A stretch of 64,000 nucleotides of DNA, taken from the IMG/VR virus record IMGVR_UViG_2721755676_000001. The stretch is one strand, 5' to 3'. The position numbers and the translations under genes are program-made. The number at the start of each line of letters is the position of its first letter. Within the stretch, counting starts at the first letter, position 1. This document shows positions 42,198 through 46,972 of the stretch, in pieces. Below the pieces are notes generated by a model. The model made no database searches. It had not been told where the DNA came from and worked only from the letters and a program-made list of their open reading frames with translations. The DNA comes from a virus. Taxonomy: Duplodnaviria > Heunggongvirae > Uroviricota > Caudoviricetes.

Positions 42198-42248
42198 CTG
42201 AGAAGAGGGCCAGAAACGGCCCTTTCTCTATAGCCACCAGCTGCCGCA

Positions 42249-42330
42249 GGGAAATTTTCAGAAACGGCGAGGAACGTATTCATGAGCCGACGGGGAACGG
42301 CCAGGATTTTTTCGGGAAACGGCTGCATTC
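42249..42330. repeat. Second GGGAAACGG-type repeat array (about 4 units)
   Basis: CAGGGAAATTTTCAGAAACGGCGAGGAACG...CGGGGAACGGCCAGG...CGGGAAACGGCTGCATTCGCC. Confidence 0.55.
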
Positions 42331-42778
42331 GCCTTTGTGTAGAAAAAACATCGGGAAGCTGGTGGAATCCAACCAGCGGTTGTCGGACAGGTGAGTGGGG
42401 AAAATTATGATGACTTTCGTCACCTGAGACATCCAGATTTCTTTCGTAGCATAATCACATACGTGATTAAGTGGTGTGATTATGTGAAAAATCACGCGCA
42501 CATAATACGCGAGCGGATACGGAACAAAACAAAATGCCGATCCGCGCCGACAAATAAACGCAGATCATAAAGCAAGACTAAAAGCCAATGATTAACTATG
42601 CGCTATAACGCGTTTTAAGCGCGTTAATGTGTTAAGTAATGGGTATGTACTGGCAAGGATATAAAAGCGCGTCTATGGCGTTATTTTGGCGCTTATTTTT
42701 ATGTTGTTGGAGTGAGTTAAAGACAATAAAAAACGCGCCATCAATGGCGCGTTATTGTGGAAGTATTGGAAACGAAAA

Positions 42779-42800
42779 AAGCGCCCATAGTGGGCGCTCG
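42779..42800. terminator. Hairpin AGCGCCCATAGTGGGCGCT (copy 1; identical copy at 43283-43305)
   Basis: Perfect 8-bp stem, followed by T-rich run on top strand. Confidence 0.5.
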
Positions 42801-42803
42801 ATT

Positions 42804-43034
42804 TTATTTATGTAAACTGATTTCAAATCCCATTTCTACAAACGCTTTTAACATTAAAAATATATCAGCGTCGTTCACGTCTACTTTTTTTCGCTCCTGG
42901 TCGCTCAATAAGTCAATTTTGCGCGTCGTTTCATCTATAAGCTCGACTGCGCGCCCAGCGTAACCAGCGATCCCAGCGATGCGACTAACATAATATTCAT
43001 TATGGACGTTAACGCCAGCGATAAGAACAAACAT
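42804..43034 (-). CDS. Hypothetical small protein (76 aa)
   Basis: Last gene of a minus-strand three-gene operon in AT-rich island. Confidence 0.45.
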   Translation of the reverse strand: MFVLIAGVNVHNEYYVSRIAGIAGYAGRAVELIDETTRKIDLLSDQERKKVDVNDADIFLMLKAFVEMGFEISLHK

Positions 43035-43054
43035 GATTAAGCTCCTTAAAAAAA

Positions 43055-43258
43055 TTAAATAGAATTTTGAAGTTTTCCGATTAATGCGCTTAAGCGTAAG
43101 TATTCACGTTTGCGCTTGCAATCTCGCTTGCTGTTAAGCAAATCAGAAAACGTAAAATTTAACTGGTCGCGTTGCGCGATCAAATCATCGATTAATTCTA
43201 GTTTATAAGCGCGATACTTTGCGCGATATTCCGCGCGGATCTTGTCATAGCTGACCAT
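43055..43258 (-). CDS. Hypothetical small coiled-coil protein (67 aa from MVSYDKIR)
   Basis: RBS AAAGGAG upstream; track ORF start at 43303 would read through the hairpin. Confidence 0.45.
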   Translation of the reverse strand: MVSYDKIRAEYRAKYRAYKLELIDDLIAQRDQLNFTFSDLLNSKRDCKRKREYLRLSALIGKLQNSI

Positions 43259-43306
43259 TTTCAAAGCTCCTTTAAAGCGCCCATAGTGGGCGCTTGATTC
43301 CATTAA

Positions 43307-43957: not shown

Positions 43958-44254
43958 GATTTTATTCCTTAGTATAAATATTAAAATTTAACTCAAGAAA
44001 GAAAGTGTTTTGCACTCGTTCCTGATGCGTTCAATTATCGACACGCGAAAAAAGATTGCAAGTGTTTTTTTAAGTTTTTTTGCAGGGATGAAAGTCCTAG
44101 AAATAAAAGCTAGATCGTCGAAGGTGTTCCCTAAATAAATAATAAATTCCGGCTTTTGACCTTATATATTTATACGGGGGAGAATTGAATGAGTGTTAAA
44201 CGAATGGCATGTAAAATAATAACCGGACTTAGCCGGTTATTACCCTTATAGAAA

Positions 44255-44773
44255 TTAAAACGGAAGGATTCGTTCAACCCAATCGAAGAAAATAAGTATT
44301 TTTCTACCGTCTTCCAACTTAAGTGTGACTAGACAGGCGTCAACGCCATCTGACGTTCCCTCAATTTCGCGACCGTCTGCCATGTAGACCCTTATAGATT
44401 TGCCGTTTTGGTAAGCCTGACGACATATCTTAAAAAAGTCACGACGTGATGGCTGATTAACCATCTGTTCATTGTTTAGCGTTAGTCGACCTGTGAATGA
44501 AGTGTCAACCTCTTCTATGCCCGACTCAATTGTGCTAATGCGCTCAAGAGGGAGCCTTATACGATTTGTGTTGCTAAGCGGATCTGGTGTGAGGTTCAGC
44601 TTATTTCTTGCGCTCAATAGCCCGTAGACATACATGCAAAATACTTGGCCGTCTTCGAGAGTGACTCTTACAGGAAATTTTGCACTCCGCCAGAAGAGCA
44701 AGGTGCGCTCAGCATGTTCGTAGTCTCGCGGCCAGACTTCAGCCGGTATGCCGTAGGTGATGTCTTTAACCAT
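44255..44773 (-). CDS. Hypothetical protein (172 aa) with duplicated beta-rich segment
   Basis: Repeated pattern VRVTLEDGQVFCMYVYG and IRVYMADGREIEG...LVTLKLEDGRKILIFFD; terminator hairpin AATAACCGGACTTAGCCGGTTATT downstream. Confidence 0.5.
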   Translation of the reverse strand: MVKDITYGIPAEVWPRDYEHAERTLLFWRSAKFPVRVTLEDGQVFCMYVYGLLSARNKLNLTPDPLSNTNRIRLPLERISTIESGIEEVDTSFTGRLTLNNEQMVNQPSRRDFFKICRQAYQNGKSIRVYMADGREIEGTSDGVDACLVTLKLEDGRKILIFFDWVERILPF

Positions 44774-44875
44774 AGTCTACCTTTTTAAGTCTTTTTTGGT
44801 CATTATATACATCTCTATGATGCGTAGACAGACTAACCGTACATTCCACCAAAAATTGATTATGGAATAAGTTTC

Positions 44876-45676
44876 ATGAAGAATGGGGTGAATAAAAAAT
44901 ACTCATTAGCATTGTTAATAGCGGCTTTACTATTAACAGGTTGTGATTCTGATGAAGAGCGAGCCATAAATCTAGTTGAAAAGGATATTCGCTCTACACT
45001 GCTAGATCCTGATGCTGGTCGGTTCACGAATATGCGAGCTATTCAGTTAGGTGAAAATAGCTATTCATATATGGTGTGTGGAGAGGTGAATGGCAAAAAC
45101 GTCTTGAACGCCTATACAGGTGCGACCGCATTCAATGCACACATCTTTGATGTTCGTGAACGTAACCCGATTGTATTCGTTACAATGGATAAAAGTACCA
45201 ACTCGGCAAGAGAACGATTACGTTTTGAACGCCAAAATCTAGCATGTAAAGAAAATGGTGTGAAACTTTATCTGGAAAACGAATCTAAAATCAGGAAGGA
45301 AAAAGAGAAAATAGATGATTTAAAAAAAACTCCATTAGGTCAGGCTGTGTTTGATGCTGCAAGTGATTCTACATATGTGAGTAGAGAGTTGGGCGAATCG
45401 AGAGGTGTTAGTGAAGTGTATGCAAGAGAAAATGATAAATATGCTCTTGTTAGCGTCACCAATTATGACACTCCTGACTTTTACAAATTTAGGAAAAAAG
45501 ACAACGGTGAATTAGAACCTGTTAGAGGGCTGTCTTATACCGGCTATCCATTCGCAGTTGCGCTGTGTCATTCTGAACAAACAGATTATGACAAATGCAT
45601 AACAGAAGAAGAAATCAGGTTGCTTCGAGACGAAAAGAATAAGCTCGACGATTTTGTCGTACCACCAGAAGAATAA
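44876..45676 (+). CDS. Lipoprotein (266 aa)
   Basis: Signal peptide with lipobox LLTGC (MKNGVNKKYSLALLIAALLLTGCDSD). Confidence 0.65.
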   Translation: MKNGVNKKYSLALLIAALLLTGCDSDEERAINLVEKDIRSTLLDPDAGRFTNMRAIQLGENSYSYMVCGEVNGKNVLNAYTGATAFNAHIFDVRERNPIVFVTMDKSTNSARERLRFERQNLACKENGVKLYLENESKIRKEKEKIDDLKKTPLGQAVFDAASDSTYVSRELGESRGVSEVYARENDKYALVSVTNYDTPDFYKFRKKDNGELEPVRGLSYTGYPFAVALCHSEQTDYDKCITEEEIRLLRDEKNKLDDFVVPPEE

Positions 45677-46061
45677 CATATACAAAATATTTAATTGCTG
45701 TAAAATTTAATCGTTCAGACATAGGGAAAGCCCGACGCCCTCGACAAATCTTTTTGGTATTGTCGAGGGCGTGTTTCAGATATGCATCCTATTGAACTCT
45801 TCAGATTTATAGGTAGATAGCGTTAATTGGCGTTTTTGTTCTTCTCTTTTTTGTTAATTTCATCACATGCAATATCATCTACTATATTTCTTAGGTCACA
45901 CGTTTTTATAAATTGTCGCATATATCCTCCGAATTTCTTCGGAGGCGAAGCCTACAAATATCATTCAGCCTATCAAGATCTTTTTTCAGCCGAAGGTATA
46001 TACATTCAAAAATGTGATGAGTGTCACATGCAGGTGCTCTCATACACCTGCATGTAGACTA

Positions 46062-46628
46062 TTAATCATTCAATAATCTATATTTTCTTTTGATTAAATC
46101 TTCACCTTTTTTGGTGAACACAAAACCAAATTGCGATTTTTTGTTCAGCCTAAGGACTCTGTTATCCAACGCATCGGTTGATGGAATCAATGTTTGATCA
46201 TCTATCCAATTAAGTAGCGTAAGAAAGTTCAGCAGCCTCAACGTTGTTGTGCGAAGCTCTTTCGATATATTTTCAATGCTGGCAATTCGTCTTTCTTTTT
46301 TCTCAGGTGGTACAGATAATTGTTCTTGAGGTTTCGTGGGTAGATAATCAATTTCGTTTGCTGAATCGAATGATATGTGTGGCGTAATTTTGCTAAAAAA
46401 GCCTTTCGCTGACTCACTTGATAATAAACCAGACCTATTCATATCGTTTGTTATTCTGTACAGGAGTGGACTGTGTTTCATTTCAGGATAACGTTGATAA
46501 AAGTTAAGCAATTCAAAAGCAGCATTAGCACCAACAAGAAAATCAGAAGGATCGCTGACTTTCCAGAAAGAATGATTTTTCTTAGCGCCAGTGGTGTCAA
46601 CAAATGATAATTCTTTTAACCAACTCAT
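46062..46628 (-). CDS. Hypothetical protein (188 aa from MSWLKELS)
   Basis: RBS GAAAGGAG; third gene of helicase operon. Confidence 0.5.
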   Translation of the reverse strand: MSWLKELSFVDTTGAKKNHSFWKVSDPSDFLVGANAAFELLNFYQRYPEMKHSPLLYRITNDMNRSGLLSSESAKGFFSKITPHISFDSANEIDYLPTKPQEQLSVPPEKKERRIASIENISKELRTTTLRLLNFLTLLNWIDDQTLIPSTDALDNRVLRLNKKSQFGFVFTKKGEDLIKRKYRLLND

Positions 46629-46693
46629 GATGTGCTCCTTTCTAACAAGTGAGCACATCATAGAATTAGTAGATAGGGGGTAAATATGAAATG

Positions 46694-46972
46694 TTACGGC
46701 AACCTGCTCAGTATTTCCTCTAGATCTTTTTTTGTCATATTGGAGTTCTCATAGATGCGCATGATTTTCTCACGCGTCTTAGCGGAAACCCCAACGGCAG
46801 ATGTGACTTTGTCAAATTCAGCCATAGTCATCGTCTCCAGAATGGCATTGATAACTTCAGCCTTAGACATCTTGATTTTTTTCTCTTTGAGTTTTATTTG
46901 AAATTTTCCAAGTTTTTCATTGGCCTTATCAGACAATGCCACTTGGCAATAAGTTGTTTTCTTTTCGCTCAT
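46694..46972 (-). CDS. Hypothetical small Lys-rich protein (92 aa)
   Basis: Starts 2 bp after helicase stop. Confidence 0.45.
   Translation of the reverse strand: MSEKKTTYCQVALSDKANEKLGKFQIKLKEKKIKMSKAEVINAILETMTMAEFDKVTSAVGVSAKTREKIMRIYENSNMTKKDLEEILSRLP

Follow-up and report, generated by a model that had tools for sequence, protein, structure and literature searches.

A FljA-family gene in the mostly conserved AT-rich module beside the helicase of an SSU5-type phage-plasmid

The 64,000-nt stretch of DNA analysed here (the window; IMG/VR virus record IMGVR_UViG_2721755676_000001) represents an Escherichia coli phage-plasmid of the SSU5/pHCM2/Cyrano type, as shown by both nucleotide similarity and gene order. 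An AT-rich region beside its helicase gene is conserved backbone for the most part, with an embedded slot for moron genes, and is not a foreign island. Among the backbone genes is an orphan member of the FljA family, encoding a protein of 172 amino acids (aa) that we judge, with a probability of about 0.6, to be an mRNA-binding translational (post-transcriptional) repressor, RNA binding in this clade being argued by analogy with characterised FljA proteins. Its principal target is probably not host fliC, or not fliC only. FljA is a textbook part of flagellar phase variation, and to our knowledge its origin and fold are essentially undescribed; a literature search returned no paper joining FljA to the Sm/Hfq fold or to phage-plasmids. 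The gene is located as follows.

44255..44773, minus strand: orphan FljA-family gene, 172 aa; core gene and allelic hot-spot, identified by Pfam profile match

The 172-aa protein scores 230.5 bits on Pfam PF03614 (Flag1_repress/FljA), where the cut-off is 24; residues 4-169 align with profile positions 1-170 of 170, and PF03614 is carried by all of its homologues. It is 36% identical to a protein cluster (P0082) annotated as phase 1 flagellin gene repressor FljA of Salmonella enterica, and RefSeq and other databases name several homologues as repressors of phase-1 flagellin or of fliC. The family has very few members: of 1.84 billion representative proteins searched exhaustively with HMMER, only 29 matched, almost all in phage-plasmid contexts. 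Salmonella FljA represses fliC mRNA post-transcriptionally, and the pBSSB1 homologue does likewise (PMC2652032). Canonical FljA sits in a hin-fljB-fljA arrangement, and mobile versions that have been validated are likewise accompanied by a flagellin gene. The 64-kb window contains no flagellin gene (best tblastn E 0.26); in one direction the neighbours of the FljA-like gene are a lipoprotein gene, p92 and the helicase, and in the other p216.

Structure modelling predicts that the 172-aa protein folds as two tandem Hfq-like Sm domains, with the N-terminal helix and five-stranded bent β-sheet of the Sm fold. Sequence-level homology, Sm1 and Sm2 motifs included, is not recognisable, the Pfam LSM and Hfq profiles reaching only E 0.08 against the protein, and a Foldseek search of the FljA model against the BFVD viral structures gave single-domain Sm-like matches only, none of them full-length.

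The closest DNA matches to the 5-kb region and its flanks are the E. coli SSU5-type phage-plasmids PhiR41_1, Cyrano/pLF82 and CP056788, at 94-98% nucleotide identity; a literature search found no paper describing phage PhiR41_1. More distant kin include Salmonella phage SSU5, the pHCM2-like plasmids of Salmonella Typhi, pMT1 of Yersinia pestis and elements of Klebsiella, Enterobacter and Citrobacter, and between 776 and 959 plasmid records have a DNA match to the region. Annotated loci from Cyrano, SSU5, pG749_2, a K. pneumoniae plasmid, pMT1, a Salmonella plasmid, an Enterobacter plasmid and two more E. coli plasmids were compared by local tblastn. All of them share one gene order: p160 (plus strand), p76 and/or p67 (minus), p216 (minus), the 172-176-aa FljA-like gene (minus), a slot of variable content, p92 (minus), the helicase (minus) and a ParB-ParB-ABC set (plus). 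This order is kept from Y. pestis pMT1 to Klebsiella, and p216, the 172-aa gene, p92, a hairpin-containing gap of ∼600 nt and a regulatory spacer form a backbone that is present in every relative examined (pMT1, Salmonella/SSU5, Enterobacter, Klebsiella).

Homologues of the FljA-like gene were found in 834 plasmid records, 345 of them from Klebsiella, 228 from Escherichia, 92 from Enterobacter, 62 from Yersinia and 60 from Salmonella; in 825 of the 834 the alignment spans 80% of the protein or more. Of 96 loci, 95 have an unbroken open reading frame of 172-176 aa. The most distant lineage of the gene, ∼25% identical, occurs on ∼110-kb Klebsiella elements in the same place, between p92-like and p216-like genes by the helicase. 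When a neighbour-joining tree was rooted at its midpoint, the deepest split separated two phage-plasmid clades, and the fljB-linked FljA proteins branched inside that span. We tentatively take the phage-plasmid locus to be the ancestral home of the FljA family; the fljB-linked FljA proteins that serve in flagellar phase variation probably derive from the phage-plasmid family.

Two further sets of sequences came to light during this survey. A chromosomal copy (P0072; 48% identical; E. coli CP125919.1, 385-398 kb) has non-conservative changes in otherwise invariant motifs and is surrounded by small open reading frames with no Pfam matches and no adjacent flagellin gene; it may be a decaying integrated fragment. 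SSU5-type Enterobacterales sequences also appear in Firmicutes-assigned bins and records, namely metagenome-assembled genomes labelled Candidatus Fimivivens and Bacillota and a protein cluster assigned to Gemella morbillorum (P0078), most likely through binning or assembly contamination.

The FljA-like gene is the most divergent of the block: in Cyrano and pG749_2 it is 65-76% identical, with neighbours at 97-100%. Sliding-window identity shows sharp boundaries, the body of the coding sequence (44250-44700) and the p216 5' untranslated region (5'-UTR; 43950-44100) falling to 67-72% inside DNA that is 97-100% identical. Fourteen allele classes can be defined at a threshold of at least 90% aa identity; up to four occur on one backbone class, and they reassort with the contents of the slot. 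Several old alleles coexist in one host species, and one allele spans five genera. The ratio of non-synonymous to synonymous divergence (dN/dS) is ∼0.12, close to the value of 0.09 for p216, and synonymous divergence (dS) between alleles on one backbone reaches 1.2-1.6 where that of p216 is 0.04-0.2. Within alleles on the Klebsiella-type backbone, 21 codons are polymorphic at synonymous and 10 at non-synonymous positions, with no stops. The low dN/dS and the high dS between alleles therefore identify old lineages that are under purifying selection and have been shuffled by recombination; the gene is not fast-evolving.

Transcription in lysogens was assessed from the RNA sequencing of E. coli LF82 carrying Cyrano (tables S1 and S4 of PMC9928086; log2 values), in which we take samples B1/B6 to represent bacteria in cell-culture medium and MB1/MB6 those inside macrophages, an assignment taken from the methods of that paper and not from an explicit legend. 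The FljA-like gene CYRAN_114 stands at ∼4.2 in overnight lysogeny broth (LB) and at 6.9-8.1 in the other four conditions, and CYRAN_115, the lipoprotein homologous to that of the window, rises from 4.7-5.0 to 7.9-9.4 (PMC9928086). CYRAN_117 (p92), listed as a moron, goes from 6.3-7.2 in LB to 8.6-9.9 in the remaining four conditions (PMC9928086); its level in LB is 12-fold above the prophage background, making it the most strongly lysogeny-expressed gene of the block. CYRAN_112 (p76) and CYRAN_113 (p216) remain at 2.3-3.6 in LB and B1/B6 and rise in the macrophage samples to 4.4 and 3.9 at MB1 and to 4.9 and 5.7 at MB6, Cyrano structural genes stay at ∼3-4, and expression of the p199 homologue is low (PMC9928086).

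Taken together, these observations show the region to be an AT-rich module beside the helicase of an SSU5/pHCM2/Cyrano-type phage-plasmid, made up of three parts: a core operon, the FljA-like gene and a moron slot. The FljA-like gene is monocistronic in this lineage, because a conserved terminator lies just after its stop codon and p216 has a separate promoter. Transcribed in lysogens, it would yield a protein that most likely binds an mRNA leader and blocks its translation, by homology with Salmonella and pBSSB1 FljA. The ancestral and main target would more likely be an mRNA encoded by the phage-plasmid itself or some host transcript that is not fliC; such a target is favoured because there is no partner flagellin, purifying selection acts on elements of non-motile Klebsiella and Y. 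pestis, and the gene has held the same position since the deepest split of these elements.

The best-surviving alternative is that the protein is a true flagellin repressor, which binds the host fliC leader and stops the production of flagellin in lysogens or at an early stage of infection. The benefit would be lysogenic conversion for immune evasion, energy saving, or the exclusion of flagellum-dependent phages, and the Klebsiella and Y. pestis copies would be carried along as the elements shuttle between motile and non-motile hosts. Full-length membership of the FljA family and the database labels on several homologues favour this explanation, the pBSSB1 homologue of canonical FljA silences E. 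coli motility (PMC2652032), so that the family can act across species, and the Cyrano copy is transcribed in the lysogen, 8- to 16-fold higher in B1/B6 and MB1/MB6 than in LB. However, identity to the validated protein is just 36%, and an orphan repressor with no partner flagellin would simply leave cells non-flagellate. E. coli LF82 and S. Typhi CT18, the carriers of Cyrano and pHCM2, are flagellate and motile, which counts against flagellin repression. Host fliC mRNA is at its highest (11.7) while CYRAN_114 is also up (PMC9928086), and the gene is intact and under purifying selection on the 345 Klebsiella plasmids and in the deeply diverged Klebsiella clade. Moreover, the coexistence of old alleles in one species and the occurrence of one allele in five genera do not track host fliC leaders, and the window contains no sequence resembling a fliC leader. 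On this balance we consider flagellin repression a live but less likely rival.

A translational repressor of non-fliC mRNAs, which we prefer, must also be weighed in the light of the DNA around its gene, whose features are listed here from the helicase leftwards.

46975..48534, minus strand: UvsW/DEAD-box-type helicase, 91-99% identical in all relatives; right-hand anchor, outside the island
46694..46972, minus strand: p92, conserved small protein directly downstream of the helicase, 54-100% identical in all relatives; phrog_1466 (unknown function)
46062..46661, minus strand: p199, second slot gene, 199 aa (188 aa from the second ATG); phrog_13473 matches residues 12-199
45735..45772, no strand assigned: perfect 13-bp inverted-repeat hairpin with a 12-nt loop, 13/13 complementary, found by repeat search in the convergent Lpp266/p199 gap
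44876..45676, plus strand: Lpp266, 266-aa lipoprotein, slot cargo, modelled as two cystatin/NTF2-like domains joined by a helical linker
44774..44875, no strand assigned: divergent intergenic region between the FljA-like gene and Lpp266, 102 nt, 32% GC, 96-99% identical between plasmids with different FljA alleles
43958..44254, minus strand: regulatory spacer, read in the p216 sense, from a multi-genus alignment and promoter scan
44213-44241, minus strand: conserved intrinsic terminator of the FljA-like gene, just past its stop codon, in the spacer
44160-44172, 44118-44140 and 44091-44107, minus strand: conserved A/T-rich blocks in the spacer
44061-44034, minus strand: σ70-like p216 promoter in the spacer, TTGCAA-16-GATAAT
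43972-44030, minus strand: p216 5'-UTR of ∼75 nt in the spacer, a block of varying sequence type
from 43971, minus strand: strong Shine-Dalgarno sequence TAAGGA, in the spacer
43307..43957, minus strand: p216, conserved core protein and first operon gene, 84-99% aa identity in all relatives; phrog_1513 (unknown function)
43055..43258, minus strand: p67, small coiled-coil-like protein; phrog_6145 matches residues 16-82 of an 82-aa open reading frame, equal to the 67-aa form, and RefSeq annotates 204 nt
42804..43034, minus strand: p76, small protein and last operon gene; phrog_1585, E 4e-38 (unknown function)
42198..42803, no strand assigned: conserved non-coding gap of ∼600 nt on which p160 (plus) and the p216 operon (minus) converge; 550-650 nt long in all 84 loci
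42775-42798, minus strand: operon terminator T1, within the gap, in tandem with T2
42728-42753, minus strand: operon terminator T2, within the gap, in tandem with T1
42200-42228, plus strand: p160 terminator hairpin, within the gap

This region had been described in a first-pass annotation as an AT-rich accessory island of genes with unknown function and mixed orientation, with many hairpins and probable defence-related cargo, and several parts of that description stand. In a GC sliding-window analysis, positions 43000-46999 have 38.3% GC against a window mean of 46.7% (standard deviation 2.6%; z = -3.2) and rank first of 241 4-kb windows. All of the listed open reading frames are present (p216, p67, p76, the 172-aa protein and the lipoprotein, together with p199 and p92), the minus-strand three-gene operon has its own σ70-like promoter and ends in two conserved tandem intrinsic terminators, and 11 terminator-like hairpins were found where 4.4 ± 1.9 are expected from shuffled sequence, clustered at 42.4-42.8 kb. 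Gene by gene, GC content is 38% in p216, 39% in p92, 39% in Lpp266 and 36% in p199; the FljA-like gene, at 46%, has the backbone value. As the conserved p216 and p92 are themselves AT-rich and the region is kept in relatives, low GC is no mark of recent acquisition here.

The view of the region as an accessory island fits only part of it. True variability is confined to a slot at 44.8-46.7 kb, between p92 and the 172-aa gene, with 21 classes among 96 loci, and relatives also differ in whether they have p67 and p76. Some 60% of the region is backbone in all relatives, and the flanking genes, the gap and the spacer are conserved in every relative examined. In keeping with the earlier description, p216, p67, p76, p199 and p92 have no assigned function; the 172-aa protein, which that description named by its length only, is the sole island protein with an identifiable family. 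The second alternative builds on that description: the region would be a horizontally acquired accessory island for defence, anti-defence or superinfection exclusion, in which the lipoprotein blocks related phages and p216/p67/p76 or p199 provide anti-defence. Conservation of most of the region as backbone argues against it. No island protein matches a defence family: a search of nine window proteins against PADLOC-DB v2 gave no match other than a chance-level one to SspC (E 0.03), and among eight proteins from alternative slot cassettes there were only weak HNH/mREase_IV matches, in one protein of one variant. Pfam, NCBIfam and PADLOC were uninformative for the island proteins and alternative cargo except for FljA and one HNH endonuclease; p216, p199, p92, p76 and p67 had no informative match in these databases or among PDB sequences, and their PHROG families are all of unknown function. 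Sequence searches of the PDB with the FljA-like protein, p216, p199 and p92 yielded nothing meaningful, and an Rfam scan of 41.5-47.5 kb found nothing near threshold. In addition, the p216 operon is silent in lysogens, which ill fits constitutive defence, and the defence and antibiotic-resistance cargo of these elements sits at another locus. We conclude that the island genes apart from the FljA-like gene have no assigned function and that nothing ties the region to known defence or anti-defence; an acquired defence or exclusion island is thus unlikely. A practical gain is that a true moron slot of ∼1.9 kb can be set apart from backbone and that low GC is shown to be an unreliable marker of accessory DNA in this element.

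Several points weigh against the preferred reading of the FljA-like protein as a phage-plasmid-derived translational repressor. The descent from phage-plasmid to fljBA is tentative, the tree being a neighbour-joining tree with midpoint rooting and long branches. The tandem Sm fold is a prediction, and kinship to Hfq is undetectable in the sequence: homology between the two was tried and dropped when hhalign of the FljA-family alignment against E. coli Hfq returned a probability of 1.2%. The argument from non-motile hosts is weakened by the movement of the elements between genera, as purifying selection could act in motile hosts. The expression data come from Cyrano, a relative whose FljA allele differs (75% identity), and depend on our assignment of the RNA sequencing conditions. 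Finally, no candidate target emerged within the 64-kb window from searches of leaders, the p216 UTR and distal blocks. A short-query blastn search of the window with the K-12 fliC promoter and leader gave chance matches only (E ∼1 or higher), leaving no mimic of the fliC leader on the element. The p216 leader was rejected as a cognate target: one UTR type is common to six alleles, its hairpins are not significant (z -0.8 to -1.6), and linkage suffices to explain its association with the gene. A distal scan, in which the window was compared with one plasmid of the same allele and two of different alleles, picked out an indel at 37.0-38.1 kb and a block at 61.05-61.8 kb. Across the collection the latter accompanies many FljA alleles, and most Shigella allele-4 plasmids lack it; it was discarded as a co-varying target.

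These searches also bear on a third explanation, under which the alleles are specificity or immunity determinants that each repress a cognate RNA operator on their own element, controlling lytic genes, replication or copy number. It would explain why old alleles are kept and swapped as cassettes, as in phage immunity regions, and is in line with the 14 allele classes, the saturated dS between alleles on backbones otherwise 93-100% identical and the sharp recombination boundaries. The p216 5'-UTR block shows 70-72% identity to relatives that match at 97-100% elsewhere, the allele of the window is accompanied by a distinct p216 5'-UTR type in six of six loci, and on Klebsiella-type backbones the leader class differs from allele to allele. 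Nevertheless, we regard such determinants as improbable, since one 5'-UTR type is common to FljA alleles 0, 1, 2, 5, 7 and 8 so that the pairing is not allele-specific, the UTR is physically adjacent so that linkage alone explains its co-travel, and the scan of the 64-kb window gave no other convincing co-varying block once the 61-kb candidate had failed across the plasmid collection.

The 61-kb segment is of note in its own right. Positions 61051-61800 are a ∼750-nt allelic replacement in an Ig-domain tail protein and an adjacent gene, 62-82% identical to pG749_2 and pR9 but matching hundreds of Klebsiella, Enterobacter and Yersinia phage-plasmids at 98.8% identity or better, a pattern of sequence identity that indicates exchange of a tail module between genera.

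Returning to translational repression by the FljA-like protein, a broader proposal can be made tentatively, as a possibility that we hold to be rather less than even. Salmonella FljA may descend from a tandem-Hfq-like core regulator of SSU5-type phage-plasmids that originally controlled non-fliC mRNAs and has been kept as ancient recombining alleles by selection for specificity or by balancing selection; expression in lysogens, which rises in medium and macrophages, might also tune flagellin or surface antigens. If the phage-plasmid copies are ancestral, the fljBA module would have a concrete origin, and a new class of phage-encoded tandem-Sm translational regulators would be defined. SSU5-type elements abound in clinical E. 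coli, Klebsiella, Salmonella Typhi and Y. pestis, with over 800 plasmid records, and a lysogen-transcribed regulator that is predicted to bind RNA could affect host physiology, or plasmid stability and induction.

With regard to the core operon, p216-p67-p76 would be transcribed as a unit from its own σ70 promoter with a ∼75-nt leader and tandem terminators. It is silent in lysogens and therefore probably serves the lytic or early programme. The first gene, p216 (dN/dS ∼0.09), has no Pfam, NCBIfam, PADLOC or PDB match. An alternative 82-aa reading of p67 from an upstream ATG is possible; the gene is present or absent depending on the relative, partly alternating with p76, which is found in Cyrano, Klebsiella, pMT1 and D4 and is absent from the SSU5, Salmonella and Enterobacter loci. 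Homologues of p67 (43055-43258; SSU5_119; phrog_6145) are labelled in GenBank and PHROGs as MIT family metal ion transporter CorA. The protein has 67 residues, looks soluble and has no match to a Pfam transporter domain, and the name is an unsupported, propagated misannotation. Downstream, the gap contains further GCGCC-rich hairpins in addition to those listed. The stems of T1 and T2 are conserved over 84 loci, and the loops alone vary or flip; the T1 loop (42775-42798) exists among relatives in two mirror forms, CCCACTATGGG and CCCATAGTGGG, with the stem unchanged, which amounts to an inversion of the hairpin loop. Among relatives the spacer between the FljA-like gene and p216 measures about 300, 600 or 2000 nt, the longer versions including an extra small gene (for example, an 83-aa coding sequence in pR9-658-1), and it is a second, smaller insertion site.

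The slot survey covered 96 related loci, 80 of them from IMG/VR. The stretch from p92 to the 172-aa gene falls into its 21 sequence classes over lengths of 106 to 2934 nt, and the cassettes belong to recurrent families. A 140-aa lipoprotein is found most often; the others are the p199 and Lpp266 families and proteins of 162, ∼190, ∼200 and 377 aa (the last with HNH), and in some cases the slot holds nothing. In this element the slot would supply an envelope lipoprotein expressed in lysogens together with p199, the roles of both being putative. The lipobox of Lpp266 reads L-T-G-C at residues 20-23 (LLL-T-G-C, 18-23), with G22 and C23 invariant in eight of eight homologues, so that the sequence marks it as a lipoprotein; the residue at +2 after the lipid-modified Cys is Asp, which predicts retention in the inner membrane, and the model has low confidence at the N-terminal helix, in keeping with a signal peptide. 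No sequence or convincing structural similarity links Lpp266 to characterised superinfection-exclusion lipoproteins (Llp, Cor and similar). The 102-nt intergenic region presumably carries the promoters of both the FljA-like gene and Lpp266; a promoter scan of it found no strong consensus promoter. The 45735..45772 hairpin is probably a bidirectional terminator. Homologues of p199 occur in 8 of the 21 slot classes, with 42% identity in Klebsiella, and p199 itself has no Pfam, PADLOC or PDB match. To the right of the slot and p92, the helicase is annotated as DEAD/DEAH or UvsW in relatives; that of the distant clade contains DEAD, ResIII and Helicase_C domains.

In close relatives, cargo that is clearly accessory lies elsewhere, beside S24 peptidase and theta-subunit genes: a complete Type I restriction-modification system in plasmid D4 (42.8-48.8 kb of the record) and ISEcp1-blaCTX-M-15 in pR9 (81.8-84.2 kb). 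SSU5-like elements have been reported with a single insertion locus for antibiotic-resistance genes, and the position of the cargo in D4 and pR9 agrees with this. A second variable slot of the window, at 37050-38100, is shared with D4 (99-100%) and absent or replaced in pG749_2 and pR9; its D4 equivalent holds a DUF1380 protein and small hypothetical proteins near metG. Positions 38001-39000 show very strong strand asymmetry (GC skew -0.31, AT skew +0.34), a single 1-kb bin far beyond the rest of the window, and four 150-nt bins, starting at 9151, 10801, 33451 and 56851, do not exceed 88% identity to any of the three close comparators and are either window-specific or hypervariable.

Compared with its closest relatives, SSU5, pHCM2, pMT1 and pLF82 (Cyrano), the element has the same gene order in this block, across genera. 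It pairs FljA allele class 4 with slot class 6 (Lpp266 and p199) and has both p67 and p76, whereas relatives have other combinations. Like prophage morons and exclusion lipoproteins such as T5 Llp, Cor and Bor, the slot is a small cargo site with its own promoter region and terminator and a lipoprotein transcribed during lysogeny; unlike those proteins, Lpp266 has a generic two-domain cystatin/NTF2-like architecture.

Hfq is a single-domain protein that forms a hexamer. The FljA-like chain would differ from it in fusing two Sm domains, and it lacks the Sm2 YKHAI motif, with a family-invariant D-W-V at the equivalent place. FljA is reported as a specific repressor and not, like Hfq and other Sm chaperones, as a general chaperone. 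With Salmonella enterica FljA and its mobile kin (FljA-z66 of pBSSB1 and the fljAB-pinR islands of E. coli and S. Senftenberg), the protein shares the same Pfam family over the full length (172 versus 179 aa). The motifs DI(T/S)YG..AE.WPRDY, PSRRD(F/Y)F.IC and FDWV.RI are common to it and Salmonella FljA and, by analogy, so may be translational repression through binding to an RNA leader. In contrast to Salmonella FljA, the gene in the window has no upstream flagellin gene or nearby invertase, and it is a syntenic core gene by the helicase that occurs in non-motile hosts and exists as many old alleles.

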